DNA from: Elusimicrobia bacterium GWA2_51_34
Lineage (GTDB): Bacteria; Elusimicrobiota; Elusimicrobia; Elusimicrobiales; UBA9959
Direction of reading: 5' to 3'
NCBI GenBank assembly: GCA_001799565.1
Contig: MGTS01000021.1
Location: 192,785-256,784, forward strand
Length of the DNA: 64,000 nucleotides
The first letter of the stretch is position 1. Each line of letters opens with the position of its first letter. Below are positions 4,811 to 45,114 of the stretch, one piece after another. The translations under genes and the position numbers were made by a program. Below the pieces are notes generated by a model. The model did not search any database and had not been told where the DNA came from. It worked only from the letters and a program-made list of their open reading frames with translations.

Positions 4811-5332
4811 TCAGTTCTCCGAAAGATTTAAAAATTTATCCGCTTTTTCAAGGTCGTCAATTGCCCTGGCCACAAGCTGGGAATTTGCTTTAGGGTCAAG
4901 ATGTTTTTCAAGCAGCTTTTCAGAAACCGCCAGGGCAAGCCCCACTACCTTTTCCCTGAGCTCGCGCACAGCCTCATTTTTCTGTGAATCTATCTCTATC
5001 TTTGCCGCCGCCACTATAAGGGCCGCGCTTCTGCGCGCCTCTTCCACTATCACTTCCTTTTCTTTCTCGCCTTCCGCCCTTGCCGCATCAAGACGGCGGG
5101 AAAGCTCTGCTTTCAGCTCGGCGAATTTAATTTCCAGTTCGTTTTTTATTTTTTCAGCCTCAACCCTGGCGTTTTCGGCGGCCTCGCGGTCGCGTCTTAG
5201 CGCGTTTTCCCTGTCCTCCACCGCTTTTAAAAGCGGCTTCCAGGCGGTTTTTGAAAGCAAGAAGACCAGCAGGACAAAGCAGGTTATTGTCCAGAAGGCC
5301 AGGCCGAATTCCGGTTTAATCAAAGCTTCCAT
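4811..5332 (-). CDS. atpF: F0 ATP synthase b subunit
   Basis: 173 aa with one N-terminal TM helix followed by a long charged coiled coil. It sits 2 bp upstream of atpH. Confidence 0.88.
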   Translation of the reverse strand: MEALIKPEFGLAFWTITCFVLLVFLLSKTAWKPLLKAVEDRENALRRDREAAENARVEAEKIKNELEIKFAELKAELSRRLDAARAEGEKEKEVIVEEARRSAALIVAAAKIEIDSQKNEAVRELREKVVGLALAVSEKLLEKHLDPKANSQLVARAIDDLEKADKFLNLSEN

Positions 5333-5764: not shown

Positions 5765-5801
5765 TATACTACCTCCCATATTTAACAGCGATCATTGACT
5801 A

Positions 5802-5896
5802 GTTGTCAGTGGACAGTGATCAGTAAAGAACAATCCGAAACTGACCACTGGTCACCTGCTTTCTCTGAATTGTGCTTCGCACCCACCACTACCCAC
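5802..5896. repeat. Intergenic imperfect palindrome, word CAGTGG/CCACTG
   Basis: Left arm is gttgtcagtggacagtgatcagt and right arm is ctgaccactggtcacctgc...cccaccactacccac, in the atpE/atpB spacer. Family members lie at 12347-12438 and 63289-63350. Confidence 0.75.
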
Positions 5897-5902
5897 TTTC
5901 CG

Positions 5903-6664
5903 CTAATGCGGATGCATTGCCGCGCCCGTGAAAATAGCCGTCAGGAATGTGAACACATAAGCCTGCAGGAACGCCACGAACAATTCCAGCAGCAGGATGA
6001 ACAGCACCAGCGCAACCGAAACAGGCGCCACGCCCAGCCCCAGGGCGGTGTTCAACGCCCCGAAGATGAAAATGAAACTTACGAAAGCCAATATAACTAT
6101 ATGCCCGGCTATCATGTTGGCGAAAAGACGGATGCAAAGGGCAAAGGTTTTTGTTAAAAGGCCTATAAGTTCTATGGGGAAAAGCAGCGGGTAAAGCCAG
6201 AACGGCACGCCCTTGGGGACGATATGCGCCAGGTAAGAAAAAAGCCCCTGCTCCCTTATGCCGGCGAAATTGACAAGCGCGAAAGTGGTAAGCGCCAGAG
6301 CCGCCGTGACGGCCAGGTTGCCGGTGGCGGTGGCCCCGAAAGGCACCATGCCCAGCAGGTTCATTATAAGTATGAAAAAAAACAGGGTGCAGAAATACCC
6401 CATATAAGCCGCGCCTTTGCGGCCAAGATTGGGCACAACCACCTCATCGCGCAGAAAAACAACCACTATCTCTATCATCGCCCGGAACGGCGCGAGCGCC
6501 AGGGAACGGCTGCGTATTATGAGAGGGAAAACCGCCAGCAGTATGAGGGCCGCTATGCCCATCATAAGCAGATGTTTTGACACCGGAAATTCTAACGGCC
6601 CCAGCGTTTGCCAGGCCCACACATGGTCAACGATATGATGCTCAAGGATCTCTTTTAATTCCAT
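5903..6664 (-). CDS. atpB: F0 ATP synthase a subunit
   Basis: 253 aa polytopic membrane protein with the conserved Arg motif LCIRLFANMIAGH. Confidence 0.93.
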   Translation of the reverse strand: MELKEILEHHIVDHVWAWQTLGPLEFPVSKHLLMMGIAALILLAVFPLIIRSRSLALAPFRAMIEIVVVFLRDEVVVPNLGRKGAAYMGYFCTLFFFILIMNLLGMVPFGATATGNLAVTAALALTTFALVNFAGIREQGLFSYLAHIVPKGVPFWLYPLLFPIELIGLLTKTFALCIRLFANMIAGHIVILAFVSFIFIFGALNTALGLGVAPVSVALVLFILLLELFVAFLQAYVFTFLTAIFTGAAMHPH

Positions 6665-6941
6665 TCTTTTTAATGGGGACGGCTTCGAAAATCAGCTGAA
6701 CCAGTATAAGAGAAACAGCGAACGGAACTATAATTATATATTTTTCACGCCGCAAAAACCAAACTGAGCCGGCAAGGAAAACCAGCCGGTACAAAAGCCC
6801 TCCTGCGAACACGGAATAAAAAACCGTATCCGGCGAGTTAAGCGTTTTTTTAAGCGACCAGCGTGCCAGCGCCCCGTTTAACACCCCCGCGGCAAGCCCC
6901 GAAAGAACAGCCATCCGGACTGAATCAATCATAAAAGACAC
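6642..6941 (-). CDS. Small membrane protein, ATP synthase protein I-like
   Basis: 99 aa with 3-4 hydrophobic segments. It overlaps the atpB start by 23 nt and sits where atpI normally lies. The call rests on position and topology only. Confidence 0.5.
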   Translation of the reverse strand: MSFMIDSVRMAVLSGLAAGVLNGALARWSLKKTLNSPDTVFYSVFAGGLLYRLVFLAGSVWFLRREKYIIIVPFAVSLILVQLIFEAVPIKKNGIKRDP

Positions 6942-7024
6942 CAGGTTGCAGGTGACAGGTAACAGGTGGCAGGCAGCAGGTGATAGGGCTCTCTGCCTGT
7001 GACCTGTAACCTGATACCTGCCGC
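6942..7024. repeat. Intergenic imperfect palindrome, word CAGGT/ACCTG
   Basis: Left arm is caggttgcaggtgacaggtaacaggtggcaggcagcaggtg and right arm is cctgtgacctgtaacctgatacctgcc. A 19-nt stretch cctgtaacctgatacctgc is identical to 45060-45078. Confidence 0.85.
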
Positions 7025-7042
7025 CTTTTGTTGACCGTCACA

Positions 7043-12346: not shown

Positions 12347-12438
12347 GTAAGTGGTTAGTGGACAGTGATCAGTGGTTAGTGAACAGCAGTGAAAACTTCC
12401 GGCCATTGCCCACTGGCCACTGCTCACTGACCACTTAG
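12347..12438. repeat. Intergenic imperfect palindrome, word CAGTGG/CCACTG
   Basis: Left arm is gtaagtggttagtggacagtgatcagtggttagtgaacagcagtg and right arm is cattgcccactggccactgctcactgaccactta. Confidence 0.8.
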
Positions 12439-12448
12439 TAAATCTTTA

Positions 12449-12520
12449 AGGCGCGGGCGGGAATCGAACCCGCGAATAGCAGTTTTGCAGACTGCCGCCT
12501 TACCACTTGGCCACCGCGCC
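12449..12520 (-). tRNA. tRNA-Cys (GCA)
   Basis: The reverse complement ggcgcggtggccaagtggtaaggcggcagtctGCAaaactgctattcgcgggttcgattcccgcccgcgcct folds as a cloverleaf. It has a 7-bp acceptor stem, a GGTTCGATTCC T-arm and a U73 discriminator. No CCA is encoded. Confidence 0.93.
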
Positions 12521-12619
12521 GTTATTGATACATATTACAAAACTTGGCATAAAGAAAAAAACGACTTCGGATGCGTCATCATGTTGAATACAAGTGTTTT
12601 ATGGTTTCAATCAGCGCGC

Positions 12620-12647
12620 GGGGAATTAAGTATTATGTCACCGGATT
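12620..12647. repeat. Island module, element A copy 1 (GGGGAATTAAGTATTATGTCACCGGATT)
   Basis: Lies immediately 3' of the Fe-S gene stop. It matches copies at 14584-14611 and 16313-16344 over AAGTATTATGTCACCG. Confidence 0.8.
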
Positions 12648-12648
12648 A

Positions 12649-13536
12649 CTAAAGCCAGGCCGAACTTTTTATGTCCCCTTGCATACTTATTACCACATGC
12701 TTCACGGGGACTTTTCTTTTGGCGCTGCCAAGCGCCTCACGCACCATGGCCACCAGCCCCAGACAGCAGGGCACTTCCATGGTTACCACGGTCAACGTGT
12801 TAATTTGGGCGTCGTCAATAAGGCTTTTTATTTTTTCAATATATATTTCCCGGCCGGCGTCCAGCTTTGGGCAGGCTATGGCAAGGGCTTTGCCTTTGAG
12901 AAAATTATTATGGAAGTCACCATAAGCGTAAGCCGCGCAGTCTGCGGCCAGCACCACATCGGCTTTATTGAAATAAGGCGCCAGCGGTGAAACCAGGTGC
13001 AGCTGCACCGGCCACTGGCGCAGCTGTGATGCAACCGCGGCGGTTTCCACCAAACCGCTTTCTGCGCCGCTAGCCTTGGGGCCGAATGTCATTTCCCGCG
13101 CCCCCGGACACCCGCATGGAGTTCGCTCTGCCGCTTCCGGCTTATGACTTGCGCCCTGTGCCTTGCGGCTTTCCTCTTCCAAAGGGTTTGGAATGCACTT
13201 TTTTTTCAAAAAATCCAGCGCCTGCTTCAAAAAATCAGACTGACCATGGTCGTTAAGATGTTTTAAATGCGCTTTTACAGTGTTCCCGCCCATTTTCACC
13301 ATATTCTCCATCACTTTTTTTTCATCGTAGGGGACAGCCGCGCGCTCCTCTATGGTAATAGCTCCCTTCGGACATTCTCCAAGACAGGCCCCGAGTCCGT
13401 CACACAAAAGGTCGCTGATCAGCCGGGCTTTACCGTCTATAATCTGCAGCGCCCCTTCCGGGCAGTTAGGAATGCAAAGGCCGCAGCCGTCGCATTTGTC
13501 TTCGTCTATTTTTATTATTTTTCGTTTAGTTTTCAT
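12649..13536 (-). CDS. 4Fe-4S dicluster domain protein with a Cys-rich C-terminal domain
   Basis: 295 aa with an N-terminal CDGCGLCIPNCP...CDGLGACLGECP ferredoxin fold, then CGCPG and VPCCLG motifs. Function unknown. Confidence 0.75.
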   Translation of the reverse strand: MKTKRKIIKIDEDKCDGCGLCIPNCPEGALQIIDGKARLISDLLCDGLGACLGECPKGAITIEERAAVPYDEKKVMENMVKMGGNTVKAHLKHLNDHGQSDFLKQALDFLKKKCIPNPLEEESRKAQGASHKPEAAERTPCGCPGAREMTFGPKASGAESGLVETAAVASQLRQWPVQLHLVSPLAPYFNKADVVLAADCAAYAYGDFHNNFLKGKALAIACPKLDAGREIYIEKIKSLIDDAQINTLTVVTMEVPCCLGLVAMVREALGSAKRKVPVKHVVISMQGDIKSSAWL

Positions 13537-13569
13537 AAGCCCTTTAACTTACCGGCAAATTTCTTTCCA

Positions 13570-13604
13570 CCCCTCACTTTTTCCGAAGAGACCAAAGTGC
13601 GGGG
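13570..13604. repeat. H1 hairpin element, degenerate copy (cccctcactttttccgaagagaccaaagtgcgggg)
   Basis: The stem CCCC(T/G)CACTTT/AAAGTGCGGGG is shared with 30977-31013, 41471-41506 and 45900-45934. This copy lies in the 5' leader of the Fe-S gene. Confidence 0.7.
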
Positions 13605-13635
13605 CCAGCCCAGCTTCACAAATTCCTGATTTTCG

Positions 13636-13669
13636 ATCATCATTTTGTTGACCTCAACAAAATGATGAT
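13636..13669. promoter_or_regulatory. Perfect 16+2+16 palindrome ATCATCATTTTGTTGA-cc-TCAACAAAATGATGAT, a candidate operator
   Basis: The arms are exact reverse complements. It lies about 100 bp upstream of the Fe-S gene start, and no T-tract follows on either side, so it is not a classic terminator. Confidence 0.5.
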
Positions 13670-13939
13670 TTAGCCTGGAATAAAAACAGGAACACGGCTA
13701 TTTATTTTGCTTTTGGCCGGCCCCCGGGCAATCCATGAAGTTTTTGCCCTGTTTTAGACACTTTGTCTGAAAACACATTTTCCATCCTCTATAGCCTACC
13801 ACAATATTCACTTAAAAGTGAACATTAACAGAGAGGAGACCTGGTTTATGGGAACTTTCCTGATCTATGCCCGGTAACACAACCTATCGTGCAACCCATG
13901 AAATGAAAGGCCTGGTCCCGCGCCGTATAGCCTTCACCT

Positions 13940-14479
13940 TTACACCGGGCGGAACCCGATTTGCTTTTTAATACCAGATTGTTTGTCGTTTTCCGGCTGG
14001 TGCAGCCCGTTCATAAGCTGGCGTATTACATTAACGATAGCTTTTATTTCCGTGTCATGTCCGGCCAGTCTGCGTTCCAGTTTCATAAGCTTAACGGCAA
14101 GTTCTTTGTGGGCAGAGACCATTTCCCTCAATCGCACAAAGGCACGCACTACGGAGATACTGGCCTGTATTGCAGCTTCTGAGTTTACGGCGTTTGCCGC
14201 CTGTATGGCGCCGTATTCCGTAAAGGCGTATGGCAAATAGCGCCGGCCGCCCCGTCCTTTTGAGGTCGCAAAATGCGACCTCAAAGATTTGGCCTCAGCC
14301 AGCGTCAATTGAAATCTGAAATCCGCAGGGAATCGTTTGATATTGCGTTGTATCTGCTCATTCAACCGTTTCGTGGTTGTGCCGTATATCTCCGCCAATG
14401 AGAAGTCGAGTATTACTCTATGTCCCCGTACAAGAAATATTTTTGACTCAATCAATTCACGCGGAACAATTTCTTTTGA
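13940..14479 (-). CDS. ORF6N-domain (KilA-N-related) DNA-binding protein
   Basis: 179 aa from ATG at 14479 (MSKEIVPRELIESKIFLVRGHRVILDFSLAEIYGTTTKRLNEQIQRNIKRFPADFRFQLT...GGRRYLPYAFTEYGAIQAA) with a coiled-coil C-terminus. The longer ORF-track start lies inside the promoter module. Confidence 0.85.
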   Translation of the reverse strand, partial: SKEIVPRELIESKIFLVRGHRVILDFSLAEIYGTTTKRLNEQIQRNIKRFPADFRFQLTLAEAKSLRSHFATSKGRGGRRYLPYAFTEYGAIQAANAVNSEAAIQASISVVRAFVRLREMVSAHKELAVKLMKLERRLAGHDTEIKAIVNVIRQLMNGLHQPENDKQSGIKKQIGFRPV

Positions 14480-14542
14480 CATAATCCCCCCTTGTATTAC
14501 AAATAGCATAGCAGACCGACACGACACCCTCTTGTCGCGTTG
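14480..14542 (-). promoter_or_regulatory. Island module, element P copy 1: palindromic operator plus extended -10 plus RBS upstream of the ORF6N gene
   Basis: Gene-sense read is CAACGCGACAAGAGGGTGTCGTGTCGGTCTGCTATGCTATTTGTAATACAAGGGGGGATTATG. It contains inverted repeat CGACA/TGTCG and a TGcTATGCT -10. It aligns with 16541-16602 and 18372-18431. Confidence 0.6.
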
Positions 14543-14556
14543 ATTGAGAGAATTTT

Positions 14557-14611
14557 CGGGGGTTTTAAAACAACCCAAGGAGAGGAACTAAGTATTATGT
14601 CACCGGATTCC
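14557..14611. repeat. Island module, GTTTTAAAAC core plus element A copy 2
   Basis: The sequence cgggggttttaaaacaacccaaggagaggaactaagtattatgtcaccggattcc is 47/55 identical to 16288-16342. It starts 6 nt after the SDR stop. Confidence 0.85.
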
Positions 14612-14616
14612 GTATA

Positions 14617-16182
14617 CTACCAATCCGTCGGCTGATAATCCTTCAAAAATTTACCCCAGACATGTACGCCGGTATTGAAGCCGGAGATAATGGGGTCCAC
14701 AATGCGCGCCGCCCCGTCCACAATGTCCAGCGGCGGATGAAAGCGGTGCTCCTTTATTTTGCGCGCGGCTATCTGCGCCGGGTCCTCGTCCGTTACCCAG
14801 CCCGTATCCACGGAGTTCATGTGAATGCCGCCTGCCTGATAGTCCGCCGCTGAAGTGCGCGTCATCATATTAAGCGCGGCCTTGGCCATGTTCGTGTGCG
14901 GATGCCGCGTGGTTTTGAACTTCCTGTAAAATTGCCCCTCCACCGCCGATACGTTTACTATGTGCTTGTCGCGTTCCGGCGCGCGGAGCATAAGGGGTTT
15001 AAGCCGCGCGTTCAGGATGAACGGCGCTACGGCATTAACCAGCTGCACTTCAAGCAATTCCACCGCCGGCACTTCCGCCATAAGCAGCCGCCACGAATTG
15101 CGCTCGCGCAGGTCCACCTGCTGCAGATCCTGGTCAAGCCTGCCTTCGGGAAACAAATCCTTCTGCGCCGCAAGTTCGTCCGGCAGCAGCGGAACCTGCG
15201 ACAGCGCCGCCGCGTGCGTCAGCCCGGCCATCTGCGAAATGCCCGGCAGCGGCGCGGCGGAAAGCCTTTGCCCGCGGGCCGCCGCTCCTTCAGGTAAAAT
15301 GTGGTAGCCGCGCAAGCCCTCGTAAGCTCCCAGCAATTTGCGTGCGCTCTCCGGCATATCGCGCAGCGGCCCCTGCTCGCCTTCCATCATGTGCCCGTAA
15401 TATTCCGGCGGGCGCCGCACGGTCTGACACGCGTTGTTTATTATAAAATCCAGCCGCGTGCGCGTTGCAAGCAGGTGCCCGCAGAACGCTTCCACGCTCG
15501 GCGTATGGCGCAGGTCCAGCCCGAAAATTTCCAGCCTGTTCCCCCATTCCTTAAAATCAGGTTCGGCCGCGTAACGCCGGGCCGAGTCGCGCGGAAACCG
15601 CGTGCTGACAATAAGCTGCGCTCCCGCGCGCAGCAGCTTGATGCCCGCCTGATAACCTATCTTTACGCGCCCGCCGGTGAGCAGCGCCACGCGCCCGCGC
15701 AAATCCGCCGTCTCCGTGCGTTTGCGGAAATTCAGCTCCGCGCACGGCAGGCAAAGCTGGTCGTAGAAATGATGCAGTTGCGTGTAATTCTGTTTGCAGA
15801 TGTAGCAGTTCTGCTCCTCGTGCGCCGAACCAGGTTCCGGCTTGTCCGCTAATTCCAGCTGCTTGAAGCCGGAAGGCGGCTGCGCGTTGGGCGTGGTAAA
15901 AACGGACTGCCGGCGCAATTTGCGGATGCCGGTCCGGTTCAGCACGCTCTCGGCGCGTTCGGATTTGTCGGCCTTACGCTGGCGCACATACGCCTTAACC
16001 AACTGCCGCCGGGCACGGGCGTCGGGGCGGGAAATCTGGCCGGCGGCCGACAGCAACCGGGTGCATTCATCCTTGGAAACGCCGATGAGCAACCCGCGGT
16101 TGCCGGCGATAGCTTCCAGTAATTCAGCGGCGGCCTGCACCCGCTCCGCCAAAGTGGACTGTTTCAATTTATCGGTAGTCAT
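14617..16182 (-). CDS. Short-chain dehydrogenase/reductase-like protein with a long N-terminal extension and a CxxC...CxxC zinc-ribbon-like motif
   Basis: 521 aa. The N-terminal ~170 aa has no fold I recognise and includes [27 protein letters not shown]. Then come the Rossmann motif [18 protein letters not shown], and MAKAALN in the position of the SDR YxxxK motif. The gene is visibly GC-richer than its neighbours. Confidence 0.7.
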
Positions 16183-16219
16183 CTAAATAATTTGCGAAAA
16201 GCGCGCTTCACTGTCATCT

Positions 16220-16272
16220 ATTATAACTATAAACCACCCCTATCAGGCCATGGCCCCCAGGGCCGTGCCATG
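16220..16272 (-). promoter_or_regulatory. Possible SDR promoter: TATAAT (16225-16220, gene sense) preceded by palindrome CATGGC-N13-GCCATG
   Basis: Gene-sense read is gcATGGCacggccctgggggCCATggcctgataggggtggtttatagtTATAATagatgac. It occupies the position taken by element P in the other modules. Confidence 0.3.
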
Positions 16273-16287
16273 CGAATTTACACAATT

Positions 16288-16344
16288 GCGGGGTTTTAAA
16301 ACAGCCCAAAGCGGGGAATTAAGTATTATGTCACCGAATTCCCC
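16288..16344. repeat. Island module, GTTTTAAAAC core plus element A copy 3
   Basis: The sequence is gcggggttttaaaacagcccaaagcGGGGAATTaagtattatgtcaccgAATTCCCC. Element A here forms a perfect 8-bp stem with a 16-nt loop and overlaps the 3' end of the 69-aa ORF. Confidence 0.85.
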
Positions 16345-16540
16345 GTTTCCTTTTGTGTCGATATATTATTTGGGCGGCCAACTCCGGGCTGCAGAGTATG
16401 CCGGTAAATGCGGACTCTCTTCGCGGACCGTTGGGAAACATTTTTGTCCTGACAGATGCCAGCCTTCCGCTGTCATTTCCGCCAGTCACTTCCGCCTTAT
16501 AGTTACGGGTTGAGTACCTGGAAATACTTATTTCACACAT
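16331..16540 (-). CDS. Hypothetical 69-aa protein (coding status uncertain)
   Basis: Starts with ATG at 16540, 4 nt after AGGAGG and directly downstream of element P copy 2. I recognise no similarity, and it could instead be a transcribed leader. Confidence 0.3.
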   Translation of the reverse strand: MCEISISRYSTRNYKAEVTGGNDSGRLASVRTKMFPNGPRRESAFTGILCSPELAAQIIYRHKRKRGIR

Positions 16541-16602
16541 AGCGCCTCCTTTTGATAGCAAAATAGTATAGCAGGCCACCACGACAACGTATTGTCGCGT
16601 TG
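16541..16602 (-). promoter_or_regulatory. Island module, element P copy 2
   Basis: Gene-sense read is CAACGCGACAATACGTTGTCGTGGTGGCCTGCTATACTATTTTGCTATCAAAAGGAGGCGCTATG. The 40-nt core at 16563-16602 is 35/40 identical to 18392-18431. Confidence 0.6.
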
Positions 16603-16751
16603 TTTTTGTGAATGATCCCAATGGTCCCTGTGGTTTCAATCCGCTTTGACGGGGAAAGCATAAAGGAATTAGTTCCGGCCTTATACATAAAGGAGTCGAA
16701 TTCGACCCCTTTAAAACTCGGGGATGATAATATTTTAGCTCCAGCCAATTT

Positions 16752-16776
16752 CTCGCACCAACGGTGCGAGTTTTTC
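16752..16776 (+). terminator. Orphan intrinsic terminator on the + strand
   Basis: ctcgcacc-aac-ggtgcgag followed by TTTTT. It sits in a 350-bp gene-free gap where all annotated genes are on the - strand. Confidence 0.5.
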
Positions 16777-16992
16777 ATTCTGCGAGTAAATCTCATAAAA
16801 AATCCGCATCCGCCACAGGGGAAAAGGCTCCTGCTGCCTTTTGCAAACTTGAGGTAACAAATTGTGACCTCAAGTTACGCGCAGGGTGCCGATATAAAAT
16901 CAGGGTTGAAGATCCGTGGGCTGGCGTGCAATAGCCGTCCCGTCCCGGCGGCGGGTTCTGCCACCGCCGGACCCGTGTTTAATTAAGACTGG

Positions 16993-17301
16993 TCACTCTT
17001 CGTCCGGCTCCACCCAGTCTATGACCGTGCCGCCGCTGTTCGGATAATACGGGCTTACAAGCCAGTCCATATCGTCGCCTCGCAGAACACGGAAATCCCC
17101 CGCCTTGAACTGCTTATCCTCGTGGATATCCAGCAGCACGGCGTCAAGGGAAGGGACCGGCACAAAAGGATAAAGTTTTTTCAGCACTTCCTCCTTTTTA
17201 TCCGCCGGTATAATATACTCGTCCACATAGCCGCCTTCCACCTTAAGAAGCCGGGTGGGAAACGGCAGCGGCAGGTCCCCAGGCTTATCCATAGTTTTCA
17301 T
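16993..17301 (-). CDS. Hypothetical 102-aa acidic protein, translationally coupled to the DUF1016 nuclease gene
   Basis: Its start ATG overlaps the upstream TGA (ATGA at 17298-17301). I recognise no domain. Confidence 0.6.
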   Translation of the reverse strand: MKTMDKPGDLPLPFPTRLLKVEGGYVDEYIIPADKKEEVLKKLYPFVPVPSLDAVLLDIHEDKQFKAGDFRVLRGDDMDWLVSPYYPNSGGTVIDWVEPDEE

Positions 17302-18371
17302 TTTTCCTCCTTATTTTCCATCTGCTCACCAACAAACAGCCGCTCACGGGCATGCGCTATGGCCCGGCGCAGGCGGGTCTCAAGCGCGGCACGCGGCGGA
17401 AGCTCCGTTAAATACTCCGCGACCCTGATTCCGCTCTTGTCCAGCTCCAACAGTTCCACCTGCTCTTCGGATTTGCCGGCACATAATATAAGCCCGATAG
17501 GAGCCTCCTCGTGCGGCTGGCGCTCGTGCTTATTCAGCCAGCGCAGGTAAAGCTCCATCTGCCCCTTAAATTCCGGCTTAAACTTCTCAAGCTTTAGTTC
17601 TATGGCCACCAGCCGCCGCAGTTTCCGGTGGAAGAACAGCAAATCCAGGTAAAAATCGTCCGGGCCGACCTGCATCCTTTTCTGCCGCGCGACAAAAGTA
17701 AAGCCGGCGCCAAGTTCAAGGATAAAAGCCTCCATCTCCCTTAATATGGCGGATTCAAGGTCTTTTTCCTGATAAGCGCCCTTCAAACCCAAAAAATCAA
17801 GAAAATATGGGTCACGGAAAACCAGGTCAGGGCTGAGCGTATCTTCTTCTTTCAATTTCCGCAACTCAAGTTCGGCTAGTTTGGCCGGCTTCCTGGACAA
17901 AGCCGTACGCTCAAAAAGCATACCGCCGATCTTTCGCTCCATGGTGCGGGTATTCCAATTTTCTATGCGGCACATCTCAGCGTAAAAAGCCCGCTTTAAA
18001 GGGTCTTTAATATAAATCAGGATTTTAAAATGGGTCCAGCTCAATTGTCTCCGCAGCGCGGAGACAATCTTTTCATCACGGAACACTTCAAAAAACCGTA
18101 TCATGTGCCGCAGATTCTTTTCAGACACACCTTCGCCGTACTCCGGCGTGAGAGTTGCAGACAATGTCCTGACGATAGCTTCGCCATACCCCGCCCTGCG
18201 GCTACCTAAAATCTCCAGGCTGATCCTGCGTCCTATTGCCCAATACATTGCCGCTATGCCGGAAGTAACCGCACTCGCAACCCCGACACGCGCCTGTGTA
18301 ATAAGCAAGCGAACATCGGCCAGCAGCCGTGGCGGACACTCCCCGGCATGCTCAATTTCTTTTTTTGACAT
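17298..18371 (-). CDS. YhcG/DUF1016-family PD-(D/E)XK nuclease-domain protein
   Basis: 357 aa. The N-terminal DUF1016 helical region has LSWTHFKILIYIKDPLKRAFY. The C-terminal nuclease core is FYLDLLFFHRKLRRLVAIELKLEKFKPEFKGQMELYLRWL. AAGGAGGGG RBS lies upstream. Confidence 0.85.
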   Translation of the reverse strand: MSKKEIEHAGECPPRLLADVRLLITQARVGVASAVTSGIAAMYWAIGRRISLEILGSRRAGYGEAIVRTLSATLTPEYGEGVSEKNLRHMIRFFEVFRDEKIVSALRRQLSWTHFKILIYIKDPLKRAFYAEMCRIENWNTRTMERKIGGMLFERTALSRKPAKLAELELRKLKEEDTLSPDLVFRDPYFLDFLGLKGAYQEKDLESAILREMEAFILELGAGFTFVARQKRMQVGPDDFYLDLLFFHRKLRRLVAIELKLEKFKPEFKGQMELYLRWLNKHERQPHEEAPIGLILCAGKSEEQVELLELDKSGIRVAEYLTELPPRAALETRLRRAIAHARERLFVGEQMENKEEK

Positions 18372-18431
18372 AACCCCTCCTTACCGCGTACATAGCATAG
18401 CAGGCTAACGCGACAACGTATTGTCGCGGTG
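18372..18431 (-). promoter_or_regulatory. Island module, element P copy 3 with perfect palindrome CGCGACAA-tacg-TTGTCGCG
   Basis: Gene-sense read is CACCGCGACAATACGTTGTCGCGTTAGCCTGCTATGCTATGTACGCGGTAAGGAGGGGTTATG. Confidence 0.65.
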
Positions 18432-18537
18432 TTTTTAAAATATTTTTCACAGCTGTCCGGGGAAAGTTTTAAACTGGGGTGGGGTGTAAACCGAGTCGGA
18501 CCTTAGAATAGGCCAAATCTCCTAAGATGGAGGTTAA

Positions 18538-18582
18538 GGTGACACACAACTTAATTCCCGTTCAATTAAGTTGTGTGTCACC
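18538..18582. repeat. Perfect 19-bp-stem hairpin whose right arm is element A copy 4
   Basis: GGTGACACACAACTTAATT-cccgttc-AATTAAGTTGTGTGTCACC. It lies 14 nt 3' of the ABC-F stop with no U-tract. The right arm matches the other A copies (AATTAAGT...TGTCACCG). Confidence 0.8.
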
Positions 18583-18595
18583 GTAATTATGCGCT

Positions 18596-20395
18596 TTATT
18601 TTTGCAGTTCTGACCAGCTTGCGATCAGGGTTTCTACTTTGCGCAGGGCGGCGTCCAGTTTTTTGTGACGCCTGGCCAGTTCTTCAGCGTCGGTGGCTAT
18701 GGAGGCGTCTTCAAGGGCCAAGCGGGCTTTTTGCGCCTGGTTCTCTGCGGTTTGAATCTCTGCTTCCAGTTTCCGGAAAGCATTTTTGTGCTCCCTTGTT
18801 TCTTTGGCGGAAGGGCCGGAGCGGGCGTCACTGTAGGCGGGTGCGGTCGCTGGCGGCGCGCTTTGCGCCTGCTCCGCCATCCAGTTCTCCCACTGCGGGA
18901 GATCGGCGAAAAAACGGGCATTGCCCCGCCCGTCCAGCGCCAGCAGCCGAAGGCTTACCCGTTCAAGCAGGTAGCGGTCGTGTGTGACCAGCACTAACGC
19001 ACCCGGAAATTCCTGCATGCTGGACTCAAGCACCTCAAGGGACTGCAGGTCCAGGTCGTTGGTGGGTTCGTCCAAAAACAGCACGTCGGCGGGCTGAAGC
19101 ATGAAGCCGGCTATAAGCACACGAGCCTGTTCTCCGCCAGAGAGCTGCCTGAGCGGCATGTCCAGCTGTTCCTGGCGGAATAAAAACCGCGAGGCCCAGC
19201 CGCGCACGTGTATGGCGCTGCCTTTGTAGTGCACATGCTCGCCGTTTCCGCAGAGCGCCCGTTTAAGAGTGTGGTCCAGGTTCAGCTGGGCGCGGTGCTG
19301 GTCGAAGGTTACAACCCGCAGGCCTTCAGCCTGCTTGCTGGTTCCAGAGTCGGGCGCCAACTGCCCCGCCAGCATTTTAATCAGGGTGCTCTTGCCAGAA
19401 CCGTTGCCGCCCACAAGGCCCAGCTTATCTCCGGGGCGAAGCGTGAGGTCCAGCGGGCCGAACAGTTTACGCCCGCCCATGCTTTTTACCGCCTTTACCG
19501 CGTATATCAGACGGTTGCCCTGGCGGTCTCCGGCGGTAAAGTCTATATCCGCAGCACGGCCCTGGGCGTTGTGATATTCCAGGTCGGAAAGTTCGTTTAT
19601 AAGTTCGCCGGCCCGGTCTATGCGGGCCTTTTGCTTGGTGGCGCGGGCCCTTGGGCCTTTGCGCAGCCAGGCTATTTCCCCCCGCACAATATTGCGCACA
19701 GAATCTTCTCGCGCGGCCTGCGCGTCAAAGAAGGCTTCACGGTTTTCAAGAAATTGACTGTAGTTGCCCGCGCTGCTGAAGTGTCCTTCCGGGTAGCGCT
19801 TGTTCAGCTCTATCACGCGGTTGGTCACGCGCTCAAGGAAGCGGCGGTCATGCGTGACCACGAGGAATGAAAACTTTAAATCAGAGATGAACCTCTCAAG
19901 CCAGAGAACACCCTCTATATCCAGGTGATTGGTAGGCTCGTCCAGCAAAAGCAGGTCCGGCTCGCGCGCCGCCTGGGCCAGTATAGCCAGGCGCTTGCGC
20001 CAGCCGCCGGAGAGCTCTGACACCTGCCGGGCCGGATCGGTTAAACCCGCCGCGGCAAGGCCTGAGTCCGCGCGGATGTCTATTTCATAATCCTGCAGGC
20101 CGAGGCCCTGCAGGGCCCGCACCACTTCCTCGCGCACGCTCCAGCCGGCGGGAGCCGGCTCAAAGAGGTCCTGTTGGGGCAGATAACCCAGGCGCAGGCC
20201 GCGCCGCGCGGTAACCGCACCGGAGTCCGGGGCCTCGCGGCCGGCCAGTATTTTAAGCAGGGTGGATTTGCCCGCGCCGTTTGGCCCGATCAGGCCGGTG
20301 CGTTCGCCTTCGGAGAGGCCGAAGGAAAGATTTTCAAACAGCGGCCGTGCGCCGAAGGTTTTGGAAAGATTCTGACAACTAAGCAGTATGGCCAT
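18596..20395 (-). CDS. ABC-F family ATPase (Uup/EttA-like, two ABC domains, C-terminal coiled coil)
   Basis: 599 aa with two Walker A motifs (GPNGAGKST, GGNGSGKST), two signature motifs (LSGGWRKR, LSGGEQAR) and no TM domain. Confidence 0.9.
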   Translation of the reverse strand: MAILLSCQNLSKTFGARPLFENLSFGLSEGERTGLIGPNGAGKSTLLKILAGREAPDSGAVTARRGLRLGYLPQQDLFEPAPAGWSVREEVVRALQGLGLQDYEIDIRADSGLAAAGLTDPARQVSELSGGWRKRLAILAQAAREPDLLLLDEPTNHLDIEGVLWLERFISDLKFSFLVVTHDRRFLERVTNRVIELNKRYPEGHFSSAGNYSQFLENREAFFDAQAAREDSVRNIVRGEIAWLRKGPRARATKQKARIDRAGELINELSDLEYHNAQGRAADIDFTAGDRQGNRLIYAVKAVKSMGGRKLFGPLDLTLRPGDKLGLVGGNGSGKSTLIKMLAGQLAPDSGTSKQAEGLRVVTFDQHRAQLNLDHTLKRALCGNGEHVHYKGSAIHVRGWASRFLFRQEQLDMPLRQLSGGEQARVLIAGFMLQPADVLFLDEPTNDLDLQSLEVLESSMQEFPGALVLVTHDRYLLERVSLRLLALDGRGNARFFADLPQWENWMAEQAQSAPPATAPAYSDARSGPSAKETREHKNAFRKLEAEIQTAENQAQKARLALEDASIATDAEELARRHKKLDAALRKVETLIASWSELQK

Positions 20396-22160: not shown

Positions 22161-23528
22161 ATGAAAAAAATAATCGTTTTGTTTTTATTTACTGTTCCGG
22201 CTTTCGTGAACGCGCAGAAGATAAAAGCGGCGGAAACAGCAGATAAAACCGTTATTTACAGAACAATCGCCGCCGGACTGCTGCGAAACTGCGCGGGCGC
22301 GGGTAAAAAAATAGCCTTGTACGGCTTTTCCTATTCCGACGGGCGGGATTCCAGGGACGGGGGAGTGGTAGCCGGAAAAATAACCGCAGAACTGGTAAAA
22401 TTAAAAAAAACCAGGGTGATAGAACGGGAAGAAATAGAAAAAGCGCTTGAAGAATTAAAACTTCCGCGCTCCGGCGCCCTAGATCCCGATTACGCCGGAA
22501 CGATAGGCAAAATGCTTGGCGCCGGCTGTGTGGTGACGGGAACTTTAACTGAACTGTCTGATAAACAGTCGGAACTGAACACCCGCCTGGTCAGTGTGGA
22601 ATCCGGTGAAACAATAAGAGCCGCCAACAACCCGATAACAAAAGACTGGCTGGATCAATACAGGGAACTCCTCAAAGAACAAAATAAAGCGGTTGAGAAA
22701 AACTCAAATGACGCAAAGGCATTTTACGAAAGGGGAGTAATATATGCCGATTTGGGCGAATATGACAGCGCTGAAGACAGCTTTGACACAGCGATCAGTA
22801 TTGATCCGGCCTATTTGGCGGCTTATTTAGGAAGGGGAAATGCCTGCGATAAAATGGGAGCATATGATAAGGCAATTGAAGATTATTCCAAAGCGATAGC
22901 CCTCAACCCAAAGTCAGCTCAGGCATATTCCGGCCGCGGGAAGGCCCGCTATGCCGGGGGCGGGCATGGCAAGGCGATTGAAGATTATTCCAAAGCGATA
23001 ACCCTCGCCCCGCGTTGGGGCCAGGCATATTGCGACCGCGGAAACGCCTACTATGCCGGGGGCGGGTATGACAAGGCGGTTGAAGATTATTCCAGGGCGA
23101 TAGTAATAGACCCAAAGCTTGCCAACGCGTATTTATTGCGCGCATCTGTTTATTCCGGGAGAAATGAGCATGAGAAGGCGGTTGAAGATTATTCCAGGGT
23201 GATAGCAATTGACCCCCAATTTGCCGGCGCATATTTATTACGCGGGGATGCCTATTGCAAAAAAGGCTGGTATGACAACGCAGTTGAAGATTATTCCAGG
23301 GTAATAGCAATTGACCCCCAATTTGCCGGCACGTATTTGTTGCGCGGAAATATCTATTACCAGGCAGGCGAATACAACAAAGCAATTAAGGATTTTTCCA
23401 AAGTGATAGAGCTCTCTCCGGAATTTATCGGTTCATATTTATTGCGCGGGGATGTTTATTCTAAGAAAGGCGAGCACGGCAAGGCGGCGGCTGACAGGGA
23501 AAAATTCAAAAGCCTGTCTCAAAAATAA
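22161..23528 (+). CDS. Secreted protein with an N-terminal CsgG/LpoB-like domain and about 7 TPR repeats
   Basis: It has a signal peptide MKKIIVLFLFTVPAFVNA. The repeats have a 34-aa period with motif A(I/V)EDYS(K/R)(A/V)I..(D/N)P..A.AY..RG. Confidence 0.8.
   Translation: MKKIIVLFLFTVPAFVNAQKIKAAETADKTVIYRTIAAGLLRNCAGAGKKIALYGFSYSDGRDSRDGGVVAGKITAELVKLKKTRVIEREEIEKALEELKLPRSGALDPDYAGTIGKMLGAGCVVTGTLTELSDKQSELNTRLVSVESGETIRAANNPITKDWLDQYRELLKEQNKAVEKNSNDAKAFYERGVIYADLGEYDSAEDSFDTAISIDPAYLAAYLGRGNACDKMGAYDKAIEDYSKAIALNPKSAQAYSGRGKARYAGGGHGKAIEDYSKAITLAPRWGQAYCDRGNAYYAGGGYDKAVEDYSRAIVIDPKLANAYLLRASVYSGRNEHEKAVEDYSRVIAIDPQFAGAYLLRGDAYCKKGWYDNAVEDYSRVIAIDPQFAGTYLLRGNIYYQAGEYNKAIKDFSKVIELSPEFIGSYLLRGDVYSKKGEHGKAAADREKFKSLSQK
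22860..23470 (+). repeat. Six 102-bp tandem coding repeats (TPR units)
   Basis: ttgaagattattcca recurs at a 102-bp period. Units starting at 23181 and 23283 are near-identical over about 49 nt (gttgaagattattccagggtRatagcaattgacccccaatttgccggc). Confidence 0.85.
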
Positions 23529-29093: not shown

Positions 29094-29180
29094 CTTGCTG
29101 GTAGGCTAGTATGCTGGTATGCTTTCTGTGGAGTTCCTGAATTAGGCCTACAGGCATACACGCCTACTAGCCTACTCGCC
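29094..29180. repeat. Intergenic imperfect palindrome, word GGTAGGC/GCCTAC
   Basis: Left arm is gcttgctggtaggctagtatgctggtatgc and right arm is gcctacaggcatacacgcctactagcctactcgcc, in the nifU/nifS spacer. Confidence 0.8.
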
Positions 29181-29182
29181 GG

Positions 29183-43856: not shown

Positions 43857-45029
43857 ATGGAACAGGCCAAAGACGACATTATAATTTACGGTGGCAGTTT
43901 TGACCCTCCGCACAAAGGGCACACTGCGCTGCTTTGCGCGGCCCTGAGGGAAATCAAGCCGCGTCGCATCTACGTGGTTCCTGCGTTCCAATCACCGTTT
44001 AAAGACGCGGCTCCGGTTTCTTTTTTAAACCGTTTCAACATGCTGAAGCTCTCTTTGGGCGCCGTCCGCCCGATACGGACAACAAGGGCAAGCCGTTTTG
44101 AGGGCCAAAAAAAGCGCGTTACTTACACTTTTGAAACCATAAAGCATTTCAGGCGTTTGCACCCTGGGGCAAAAATTTATTTTCTGCTGGGTTCCGACTG
44201 CCTGGCCGGCTTTTGGCGCTGGAAAAACCGCCGGGGGATACTTAAAAACGCCGTTTTACTTGTGGGAGCGCGGCGCGGATTTCCGTTTAAAAATTACTCC
44301 AACTTGCCCGGCAGCGCCGTGCGGCGGGTTCCTTTCAGGCGGCTTAAAGGTTTTTTTCCTGAAATTTCCTCCACGTCTTTGCGCGTCGGATTATTGACAG
44401 GGGTCGATAGCCGGTTTATAGCGGCCCCGGTAAAACGCTATATCAGGCAAAAAAAGCTTTATTTTTCAAAGGAAAGGCGGTTTTTAAAACAGCTGCTTAC
44501 GCCCGCGCGCTACGTTCACAGCCTTTCAGTCGCCCGCCTAGCCGCGGAACTCGCCGCCCTGCACGGCGAAAGCCCGCAGAGAGCGGCATTGGCCGGACTT
44601 TTGCATGACGCCGCCAGAGACTTCGGGGAAGTCCGCCTTATGCGCTACGCCGTTTCAAAAAAACTGAAAATTCCCTGTTTTGCGCGGACAGCCGCGCCGA
44701 TTCTTTTGCATTCTTACGCGTCCGCGGAGGTTGCCCGCGGGCGTTTCGGTGTGAGGGATAAAACTGTTTTACGCGCCATCGCTCTGCATACTTCGGGAGC
44801 CGCCCGCATGGACACGTTGTCTAAAATCATATATGTGGCGGATCTGGCGTCGGAAGACAGGAAGTTTTCGCAGGCAAAAAAAATAGCGCGCCTTGCGCGG
44901 CGGGACCTTGACGAGGCTTTCCTCGCGGCCAATTATGTTAAACTCAAATACGCGGCTAAACGGCAGGCCGTAGTTGGAGGAAAGTCATCAGGTCGCAGGT
45001 TACAGGCAACAGGCAGCGATAGTATGTGA
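43857..45029 (+). CDS. nadD: Fusion of nicotinate-nucleotide adenylyltransferase (NadD) and YqeK-type HD phosphohydrolase
   Basis: The N-terminus has GGSFDPPHKGH and the C-terminus has an HD domain (RYVHSLSVARLAAELA...LLHDAARD). I chose the start at 43857 because the ORF-track start at 43755 lies in the palindrome. The last ~15 codons run into the next palindrome. Confidence 0.85.
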   Translation: MEQAKDDIIIYGGSFDPPHKGHTALLCAALREIKPRRIYVVPAFQSPFKDAAPVSFLNRFNMLKLSLGAVRPIRTTRASRFEGQKKRVTYTFETIKHFRRLHPGAKIYFLLGSDCLAGFWRWKNRRGILKNAVLLVGARRGFPFKNYSNLPGSAVRRVPFRRLKGFFPEISSTSLRVGLLTGVDSRFIAAPVKRYIRQKKLYFSKERRFLKQLLTPARYVHSLSVARLAAELAALHGESPQRAALAGLLHDAARDFGEVRLMRYAVSKKLKIPCFARTAAPILLHSYASAEVARGRFGVRDKTVLRAIALHTSGAARMDTLSKIIYVADLASEDRKFSQAKKIARLARRDLDEAFLAANYVKLKYAAKRQAVVGGKSSGRRLQATGSDSM

Positions 45030-45114
45030 CAGGTGGCAGGTATCAGGTAACAGGAAAATCCTGTAACCTGATACCTGCAACCTGTGACCTGTGACCTGTT
45101 GCCTGATACCTGCC
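44989..45114. repeat. Imperfect palindrome, word CAGGT/ACCTG
   Basis: The inner stem gcaggtatcaggtaacagg-aaaat-cctgtaacctgatacctgc matches 18/19 positions. The outer arms are made of looser caggt/acctg repeats. Confidence 0.9.

Follow-up and report, generated by a model that had tools for sequence, protein, structure and literature searches.

What is a repeated sequence module doing at the boundaries of a run of functionally unrelated genes, and does it mark the joints of a cassette array? The question is raised by a segment of the genome of Elusimicrobia bacterium GWA2_51_34, which we examined within a stretch of 64,000 nucleotides (nt) from contig MGTS01000021.1 (hereafter the window). Between a tRNA-Cys gene and the gene for an ABC-F ATPase (positions 12449-18595), parts of one module, here termed A, B, and C, recur in the spacers of a series of genes, and a sequence-only reading of this DNA took the module for a cassette-boundary element. 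Our analysis indicates that A and C are separate things. Part A has the motif, the geometry, the target genes, and the linked regulator gene expected of a promoter that depends on a WYL-domain activator, and part C is one arm of a dispersed intergenic palindrome. We consider it probable that the segment is a strain-variable islet of candidate defence units under a lineage-wide, WYL-type stress promoter, and that no dedicated integrase is involved.

A repeat finder recovered all three parts of the module at the places where they had been reported. Part A lies at 14501-14553, 16561-16613, and 18390-18442 (family D3, 70-79% identical), parts B and C together lie at 14559-14611 and 16290-16342 (family D17, 89% identical, or 47/53 positions), and part C lies at 12618-12647, 14580-14609, and 16311-16340, with a diverged copy at 18558-18587 (family D6). 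With up to three mismatches allowed, the pattern CGACA-N6-TGTCG-N10-CTATRCTAT has three matches in the 64 kb and none in 100 shuffled versions, and a 16-mer from part C has four matches in the window where 0.26 would be expected. At this tolerance no copy of A or C was found elsewhere in the window, and all of them fall between 12.6 and 18.6 kb. The individual copies are as follows.

14503-14537, minus strand: A1, with the predicted WYL-type site at 14537-14522 and a TG-extended -10 box, TATGCT, at 14510-14505; the ATG of the ORF6N gene lies 20 nt past the end of the element
16563-16597, minus strand: A2, with the site at 16597-16582 and the -10 box, TATACT, at 16570-16565; only a remnant follows, and the element is one end of a strain deletion or insertion
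18392-18426, minus strand: A3, with the site at 18426-18411 and the -10 box, TATGCT, at 18399-18394; the ATG of the YhcG gene lies 20 nt past the end of the element
12620-12647, plus strand: single C arm directly after the stop codon of the Fe-S gene (family D6, exact 16-mer match)
14559-14611, plus strand: B (14559-14578) and C arm (14584-14611), between the stop codon of the SDR gene and A1 (family D17)
16290-16342, plus strand: B (16290-16309) and C arm (16315-16342), 5′ of the SDR gene (families D17 and D6)
18534-18586, no strand assigned: complete variant C palindrome with 23-nt arms (inverted repeat I1), directly after the stop codon of the ABC-F gene

The description of the module nevertheless required revision on several points. 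The spacing of the half-sites of part A is CGACA-N5-TTGTCGCG, which is equivalent to CGACA-N6-TGTCG. At the copy that had been called expanded the repeat is indeed present, but its C portion is a complete, near-perfect palindrome (18534-18586), whereas the other C copies in the window are single arms. Part B is not retained as a hairpin in copies from other species; B overlaps an A-rich stretch that precedes many A sites in the consensus. Nor do the parts form one boundary element, as no more than about six of the at least 132 A sites combine A with both B and C.

Read on the gene strand, the A copies of the window have the form CGACA-N6-TGTCG-N10-CTATRCTAT, with an ATG 20-22 nt further on, and the full form is AACC-CGACA-N6-TGTCG-GGTT-N4-TGC-TATGCT. 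A pattern scan of metagenome contigs returned at least 120 stretches with such an element, and the matches listed contain 132 non-redundant sites. The consensus of these sites is aAaaa..cc.tta.cAACC CGACA cgCCgT TGTCG GGtTgGtC TGCTATGCTAT TTgtg..GGGG..ATG, and the TG and GG positions, which the search pattern did not force, carry about 2 bits of information. No -35 element is conserved. Such an element would be expected 17 nt upstream of TATRCT, which is in the variable center of the palindrome (about 0.1-1 bit) and accounts for its absence, and a promoter-consensus scan likewise found no -35/-10 pair at A.

The palindrome and the -10 box are inseparable in these data. The fetched loci (contigs and loci fetched for comparison are given L numbers) amount to 658 kb, and in this DNA all 148 of 148 palindromes of the form CGACA-N4-8-TGTCG stand beside the -10 box or a closely similar sequence, with none alone. 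Every site among the matches listed faces a start codon. For one A-driven family the ATG comes exactly 7 nt after TATGCT, as would be expected of a leaderless transcript. A different arrangement is seen at position 883 of L127, where -10-like boxes lie on both sides of the palindrome (TATAGCAG...CGACA-N6-TGTCG...CTGCTAGGATAT), a sequence that suggests a divergent promoter pair sharing one activator site.

The genes behind part A are diverse. The 135 downstream genes among the matches listed belong to at least 48 unrelated families, and these include housekeeping recQ and ssb, a dispersal that the sequence-only reading had itself named as telling against its cassettes. The most frequent products are ORF6N proteins (15), YhcG (12), Schlafen/AlbA_2-HATPase_c_4 proteins, RecQ, Y1_Tnp, and Gp49 toxins (6 each), SSB (5), Bro-N (4), and RadC (3). 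Two genes each encode DUF2779, an N6_N4 methylase, an SNF2-PLD helicase, DUF3800, KilA-N, and relatives of a 102-amino acid (aa) protein of the window; single genes encode HsdM, an SbcD-like protein, a DnaQ-like exonuclease, ComM, BrnT, a DUF559 endonuclease, and the antitoxins Xre/Panacea and MbcA. The targets thus include DNA-damage-response genes, namely recQ, ssb, radC, comM, and those for the DnaQ-like exonuclease and the SbcD-like protein. All of the named downstream proteins come from metagenome-assembled genomes (MAGs) of Elusimicrobia, and a scan of viral contigs for part A found no site. In five loci (L200, L191, L149, L171, and L085), two to four co-oriented A-driven genes form an array.

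The geometry of part A matches that of promoters served by WYL activators. The in vivo consensus for PafBC is tGTCgg(N10)tA(N3)T, in which a -26 element replaces the -35 element and the WYL activator adapts the housekeeping sigma factor (PMC8635444). TGTCG(G)-N10-TATRCT, present in three of three window copies and in the consensus of the A sites, fits both this core and the exact N10 spacing. PafBC promoters also resemble the part A system in their absent -35 element, their helix-turn-helix (HTH)-WYL-WCX regulator, and a regulon rich in repair genes. Unlike the non-palindromic site of the PafBC heterodimer, however, part A has a second, inverted half-site, CGACA, 6 nt upstream. Inverted half-sites are found at the sites of DriD, a homodimeric WYL activator of Caulobacter crescentus, which have the form ATACGAC(X)7GTCGTAT (crystallized site ATACGACAGTTACTGTCGTAT; PMC10853764); their CGAC and GTCG half-sites are identical to those of part A but are spaced by N7 and not N8. 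DriD-regulated promoters lack a -35 element and have the activator site in its place at a fixed distance from the -10 box (PMC13004042), as in part A, and their targets likewise include nuclease and repair genes. In a DriD construct with an "optimized -35", TTGACA was set in the palindrome center, ending 2 nt before GTCG (PMC13004042); a -35 element placed 17 nt from TATRCT would land at the same place in the part A palindrome. Relative to DriD, the system described here belongs to another phylum, has a much larger regulon made up mostly of accessory genes, and involves binding that is predicted.

A third WYL activator offers a precedent for the gene content. In the Moraxellaceae, DdaA controls anti-phage systems along with the damage-response genes ssb, recA, and uvrA (PMC12392091, PMC13010146), so that one WYL activator serves both damage-response and defence genes, as proposed for part A. 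The defence targets of DdaA are CRISPR-Cas, restriction-modification, and Zorya systems, whereas those of part A are stand-alone ORF6N/PDC-S05, YhcG/PDC-S02, Schlafen/AlbA_2, KilA-N, Bro-N, and toxin-antitoxin genes. In the DdaA work, the authors argue that the -26 mode of PafBC does not apply to their regulator.

Genes for a suitable regulator accompany part A in the lineage. A regular-expression search for WYL proteins gave no match, but candidates were then found by tblastn with a hand-made YafY-like consensus and confirmed with Pfam, and homologues of these added a further five loci. In all, genes encoding HTH_11 or HTH_PafC together with WYL and WCX domains adjoin A sites at 11 loci (L121, L122, L136, L138, L167, L181, and L205-L209); in L181 the regulator gene is divergent from an A-ORF6N unit and 11 nt away from it. 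The best matches of the linked regulator in the PDB are PafC, DriD, and PafBC. Because the gene is a single ORF (open reading frame) with one HTH-WYL-WCX set, its product is expected to form a homodimer. The family as detected comprises 58 clusters, and Elusimicrobia are the source of all those that carry a name.

A conserved gene order surrounds these regulators: the regulator gene, a gene for a protein of about 341 aa with no Pfam hit, a DUF350 gene, an A site, and a small ORF that starts with an ATG 7 nt past TATGCT. The locus is present in L121 (9793-11311), L136 (386-3279), L138, L122, L167, and L205-L209. Its small, predicted leaderless ORF begins MTNK... and is followed by an ORF of about 90 aa (MxWxIKxWICGGF), and L205-L209 carry a radical S-adenosylmethionine (SAM)/SPASM enzyme gene in addition. 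This locus may be the primary target of the regulator, and its product may be a damage-induced peptide, either resembling ribosomally synthesized and post-translationally modified peptides or acting as a DidA-like division inhibitor. From its motif, geometry, targets, and linked regulator we therefore infer that part A is a WYL-activator-dependent promoter. In the literature searched, no WYL-controlled damage or defence regulon is described for Elusimicrobia.

Part C behaves differently. The 17-mer TAAGTATTATGTCACCG of part C was sought in 596 Gb of sequence in which each species was represented by a single genome. The 61 loci matched are about as many as chance would give, but Elusimicrobia contigs, drawn from about a dozen MAGs and with conserved flanks, account for 28 of them, and there the 17-mer is mostly the right arm of CCGGTGACATAATACYTAT-(10-60 nt)-AATTAAGTATTATGTCACCGG. 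These 28 loci hold 33 C copies, of which 19 are full palindromes and 31 are intergenic. The copies lie between tandem, convergent, and divergent genes alike, show no link to accessory genes, and are few, with at most about nine exact 17-mer matches in any single genome. Part C is therefore one arm of an intergenic palindrome similar to repetitive extragenic palindromic (REP) elements and dispersed in several Elusimicrobia species. Like REP sequences and bacterial interspersed mosaic elements, it is a palindrome with arms of 15-20 nt, intergenic, dispersed, found in both orientations, and accompanied by single-arm remnants; it differs from them in its low copy number, in a sequence kept across several species, and in its non-random association with about 5% of A promoters, from which it keeps a constant spacing.

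This last feature is noteworthy because C is rare. The C-B-A composite of the window is also present in L016, L032, L184, L161, and L198, and in these loci, as at A1 of the window, the C arm precedes the WYL site by about 48 nt, with different genes behind it. The pairing concerns about six of the at least 132 A sites listed. Given the rarity of C, such fixed-distance pairing is far above chance, and the C arm may serve a second factor as a site or may be a scar left by recombination. The complete variant palindrome behind the ABC-F gene is the sole strongly folding hairpin of the set (z = -5.3), and near-identical copies of it occur in L089, L152, and L145. Three C-type elements with a long shared loop separate three secreted-protein genes in L061 (4002-6432 and 6461-7453), which comes from an Elusimicrobiales MAG; they are spaced 0.9-1.5 kb apart and end beside a gene for an XerC/D-like tyrosine recombinase.

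The genes and other features between which the module copies lie are listed here.

12449-12520, minus strand: tRNA-Cys (GCA), the low-coordinate edge of the segment (ARAGORN; Rfam tRNA, 70.2 bits)
12649-13536, minus strand: 4Fe-4S dicluster protein, 295 aa (Pfam Fer4 families; AF_0155 in the contig gene table)
13636-13669, no strand assigned: perfect 16+16 palindrome (inverted repeat I4) in the 400-nt ORF6N/Fe-S spacer
13940-14482, minus strand: ORF6N-domain protein, 180 aa, driven by A1 (Pfam ORF6N, 6.7e-29; PADLOC PDC-S05, 1.6e-46)
14617-16182, minus strand: oxidoreductase of the short-chain dehydrogenase/reductase (SDR) family with a Cys-rich N-terminal extension (Pfam adh_short); not A-driven
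16593-16730, minus strand: fragment corresponding to aa 61-106 of an A-driven KilA-N protein (tblastn, 67% over 46 aa, E = 5e-17)
16717-16875, minus strand: fragment of a second, different YhcG type, aa 54-115 (tblastn, E = 5e-14), with stop codons and a 9-aa gap
16993-17301, minus strand: 102-aa protein of no known family, whose start overlaps the YhcG stop (ATGA)
17298-18371, minus strand: YhcG/DUF1016 PD-(D/E)XK nuclease, 357 aa, driven by A3 (Pfam DUF1016_N and YhcG_C; PADLOC PDC-S02, 5e-125)
18596-20395, minus strand: ABC-F (Uup-type) ATPase, a core gene and the high-coordinate edge of the segment, identical to the protein of Elusimicrobia bacterium GWF2_52_66 (Rifle aquifer MAG)

Much of what had been said about these genes holds. 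All six ORFs of the segment are on the minus strand, Pfam agrees with the earlier assignments (Fer4, ORF6N, adh_short, and DUF1016_N with YhcG_C, leaving the 69-aa and 102-aa ORFs without a family), and the contrast in G+C content between the SDR gene (0.59-0.65) and the ORF6N gene (0.46-0.50) is real. The defence-type content is likewise borne out, as both PDC-S05 and PDC-S02 are defence-candidate families of PADLOC. The 69-aa ORF (16331-16540, minus strand) does not stand as a gene: it has no family hits and strain L003 reads ATG-TGA, so that it is a non-coding remnant downstream of A2. The SDR product is 521 aa as called in the window, and public assemblies use a 507-aa start at 16140. Its gene had been counted as a cassette; in a relative (L126) an 84% identical homologue is an ordinary operon member, translationally coupled to an upstream cyclase gene, and an A-YhcG-102-aa unit lies 9 kb away. 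For the Fe-S gene we found no part A upstream and, by blastn, no homologue in the fetched loci.

The window's ORF6N protein has an 81% identical homologue in L016, and homologues of the 102-aa protein adjoin YhcG in L016 and L126, which makes it a conserved partner. In L085 (1573-1943) a homologue has its own A promoter and no YhcG beside it, so the protein may not depend on YhcG as a partner and may instead form a unit of its own. The array in L016, from another species, is homologous to that of the window and consists of YhcG, the 102-aa homologue, C-B-A, a second YhcG, and ORF6N. Together with the arrays of two to four A-driven genes, it indicates that islets of such units are recurrent.

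The claim that the segment is accessory and variable is sustained by differences between strains and by gene debris. Most public contigs of the population have the gene order of the window, with three exceptions. Contigs L003 and L004 are 100% identical to the window over 11.8 kb, a match that ends with the ABC-F palindrome, and about 30 differences follow in the next 100 nt or so. Absent from both are YhcG, the 102-aa gene, and the debris-filled spacer, about 1.83 kb in all (window 18391-16609); L003 resumes inside A at A2 with about 98.4% identity, and L004 ends at A2. Sample SRR6487700 yields one contig that ends at A, a 1.9-kb unitig with YhcG and the 102-aa gene only, and a third contig that starts at A2, a pattern from which it follows that both alleles coexist. 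Another population (L071) has a 20-nt deletion in YhcG (window 18219-18238) that splits the gene into ORFs of 276 and 49 aa, which suggests that YhcG is dispensable or being lost. In two samples, Logan unitigs (L072, L073, and L076) break within tRNA-Cys at window 12477-12493; this break could be a further variant junction at the tRNA, or it could arise merely because the sample contains another copy of tRNA-Cys.

The 390-nt "spacer" at 16603-16992 is gene debris. It holds the YhcG-type fragment, which is 79% identical by blastn to L200 and L096 and contains the palindrome at 16846-16876 (inverted repeat I6), and much of the KilA-N fragment, which is 77% identical to L149 and L201. An assignment of the 16846-16876 palindrome to an ORF6N pseudogene was dropped, as a weak tblastn search yielded no significant match and the palindrome was later placed within the YhcG fragment. 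Because both fragments belong to families that are A-driven elsewhere, the islet has turned over several units. Orthologues of the ABC-F gene that we examined (85-89% identity) have different neighborhoods, with rpsO-pnp downstream, so that no "empty site" is definable.

Some further repeats were recorded in passing. The palindrome at 13636-13669 reads ATCATCATTTTGTTGA cc TCAACAAAATGATGAT, with a strain single-nucleotide polymorphism near its center (13655), and a similar copy lies 3′ of another A-driven gene in L159. Palindromes also occur within coding sequence (18043-18075 and 14259-14287 in the window; 5981-6009, 6091-6119, 4886-4912, and 5121-5148 in L016) and stay symmetric between homologues through compensatory changes. 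The palindrome of the YhcG N-domain, for example, is ATTGTCTCCGC-GCT-GCGGAGACAAT in the window and ATTGTGTCGAC-AGC-GTCGACACAAT in L016, and that of ORF6N is GAGGTCGCAAAATGCGACCTC, a type that is also found just 5′ of the ORF6N start in L016 and L181. A tandem repeat with a period of 102 nt lies at 22959-23468, where four 204-nt matches overlap and have 67-75% identity to the reference copy. Short intergenic tandem repeats with a period of 7-8 nt, such as AGTGGTTAGTGGACAGTGATCAGT and CCTGTGACCTGTAACCTG, occur at 12350-12387, 5801-5824, 6931-7027, 45026-45114, 2604-2652, 29149-29181, and 37101/43807/51572, and similar runs stand directly upstream of A sites in the relatives L082, L131, and L157.

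These results can be united in one proposed mechanism. The islet would consist of two candidate defence units, ORF6N and YhcG with its 102-aa partner, each with its own copy of part A, and of a third, decayed unit of which only the part A copy is kept. Part A would be the palindromic site of a homodimeric HTH-WYL-WCX activator of the DriD, PafBC, or DdaA kind, located where a -35 element would otherwise stand and at a constant spacing from the TG-extended -10 box. By analogy with those systems, single-stranded DNA (ssDNA) arising from damage or from invading DNA would activate the regulator, housekeeping RNA polymerase would then fire the A promoters, and repair genes (recQ, ssb, radC, exonucleases) would be induced together with those for stand-alone nucleases, DNA binders, and toxins. 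After exchange among related strains, units would be gained, lost, or truncated by ordinary homologous or illegitimate recombination between the near-identical promoter modules and flanking core DNA. This route is the most likely one, given that every unit carries the same 45-110 nt promoter and that the islet sits behind the terminator-like palindrome of ABC-F; a dedicated exchange mechanism is unlikely.

Several observations weigh against this explanation. Neither recA, lexA, nor uvr genes are among the 135 downstream genes listed, and the absence of recA from this list sets part A apart from PafBC. All A copies have a half-site spacing of N8 where DriD has N7, and because PafBC sites are not palindromic, part A must be regarded as a hybrid of two described architectures. 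We found no WYL regulator gene in the 64-kb window. The linkage of regulator and A site holds for the lineage; for this organism no regulator gene was located, and the nearest candidate (P0206), although present in three of the same samples, is on contigs of 61% G+C compared with about 52% here. The outer base pairs of the palindrome covary, a pattern that a folded nucleic acid would also give. Both the transcription start and the induction of A-driven genes are things that we infer by analogy. Finally, the C-arm direct repeats that bracket three sub-segments and the sharp allele break at the ABC-F palindrome lie outside the promoter model.

These last two points speak for a site-specific cassette array, in which C arms or the C-B-A composite would be attachment sites (attC-, att-, or dif-like) and a recombinase encoded elsewhere would insert and excise small cassettes in tandem beside the ABC-F palindrome. 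The direct repeats are 28-30 nt long, the strain alleles diverge immediately after the last base of that palindrome, at least six unrelated promoters have a C arm at a constant distance of about 48 nt upstream of A, and the C-type elements of L061 stand beside an Xer-like recombinase gene. Like integron arrays and clusters of attC sites lacking integron integrases, moreover, the islet has co-oriented, small, unrelated genes, a boundary repeat, and strain-level presence or absence. Yet it has neither an attC consensus or structure nor an integrase: a consensus test for R'' (RYYYAAC)/R' (GTTRRRY) pairs 50-150 nt apart found zero in the six spacers on both strands, and, in agreement with the initial observation that no integrase or transposase gene is present, neither an Xer-type or other tyrosine recombinase nor an IS200-type (Y1) transposase was found in the window. 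The C arm holds TTATGTCACCG with no matching inverted arm 6 bp away (the arms of full palindromes are 16-60 nt apart), and as a dif/Xer site its 28-mer fails, having only TTATGT-A in common and lacking the ATAA-N6-TTAT arm symmetry. Elsewhere C is mostly a complete palindrome in any gene orientation, the sole observed presence/absence event rejoins within A rather than C, and in a relative the supposed SDR cassette belongs to an operon. Unlike in integron arrays, the repeated element is here a putative promoter and each gene has its own, and the repeat is not confined to array boundaries, as A precedes unlinked core genes such as recQ and ssb in many contigs and C is dispersed genome-wide. The integron-like reading therefore gives way to a regulon promoter and a dispersed palindrome, and we consider a cassette array improbable. 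Quite unlikely, too, is an integrase-free or Y1 transposase-assisted cassette system in which units are exchanged through the promoter module itself, given that all damage-inducible accessory genes have these 45-110 nt in common, in some cases with a C arm at a set distance. If this were true, the ssDNA signal that turns the genes on would also be linked to their gain, loss, and reshuffling, the allele break and the direct C-arm repeats would be footprints of module exchange, and Elusimicrobia would possess a damage-inducible, shuffling bank of single-gene defences.

Other alternatives concern part A itself. It could be an operator for a repressor, either LexA at an SOS box or some other damage-regulated repressor, over an extended -10 promoter. 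A palindrome centered near -31.5 would overlap the RNA polymerase footprint, recQ, ssb, and exonuclease genes are in the regulon, and the WYL proteins CapW and BrxR are repressors (PMC11662680). Against this stand the -10 spacing, exactly that of PafBC activator promoters, the geometry equal to that of DriD activator promoters, and a linked regulator closest to PafC and DriD; with lexA, recA, and uvr or other core SOS genes missing from the downstream genes listed, a LexA box was rejected, and a repressor operator of any kind is improbable. The same center rejects a CRP-like class II activator site, which would be expected at -41.5, and promoters of the sigma-54 and extracytoplasmic function types are excluded on spacing. 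That part A acts as a structured nucleic acid, a 5′-leader RNA or ssDNA hairpin comparable to the radC and STAXI motifs, and not as a protein site is distinctly improbable. Its stem is predicted in every copy, the outer pairs covary beyond independence (AACC/GGTT, ATCC/GGAT, ACCC/GGGT, GGC/GCC), and the set of A-driven genes presumably resembles that of the radC motif. However, only tRNAs exceed the Rfam gathering threshold, with nothing relevant even at E <= 5 in 12400-18700, and apart from the ABC-F palindrome the spacers fold no better than shuffled sequence. No conserved promoter precedes the hairpin, the TG-N-TATRCT box downstream of it is nearly invariant, the ATG of the leaderless family follows that box by 7 nt, and a dimeric regulator also predicts covariation, as DriD sites have palindromic flanks. 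Very unlikely, finally, is that A and C are both selfish elements of the REP or miniature inverted-repeat transposable element kind, spread by IS200-like (Y1) transposases and without regulatory role. Six A-driven genes among the matches listed encode Y1_Tnp and C is a dispersed palindrome of REP type, but A never occurs without a -10 box and always faces a start codon, C has a low copy number, and the window has no Y1 gene. For part C alone, a selfish origin would be compatible with the WYL-promoter explanation and not truly a rival to it.

The islet is therefore best regarded as an addition to the known WYL-controlled damage and defence regulons, situated in a recombination-prone segment. 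For genome scans it carries a caution, in that boundary repeats can be the signal of a regulon and not a recombination site. By combining the -26 element and spacing of PafBC with the DriD-type palindrome in the place of the -35 element, part A would join features that have been described separately, and the promoter and regulator offer a pair ready for testing poorly understood genes. The explanation predicts an SOS-independent, ssDNA-sensing WYL regulon in Elusimicrobia, an uncultivated phylum. It also predicts that ORF6N (PDC-S05), YhcG/DUF1016 (PDC-S02), Schlafen/AlbA_2, KilA-N, Bro-N, and several toxin genes are co-induced with recQ and ssb, which would point to roles for these proteins in the handling of damaged or foreign DNA.

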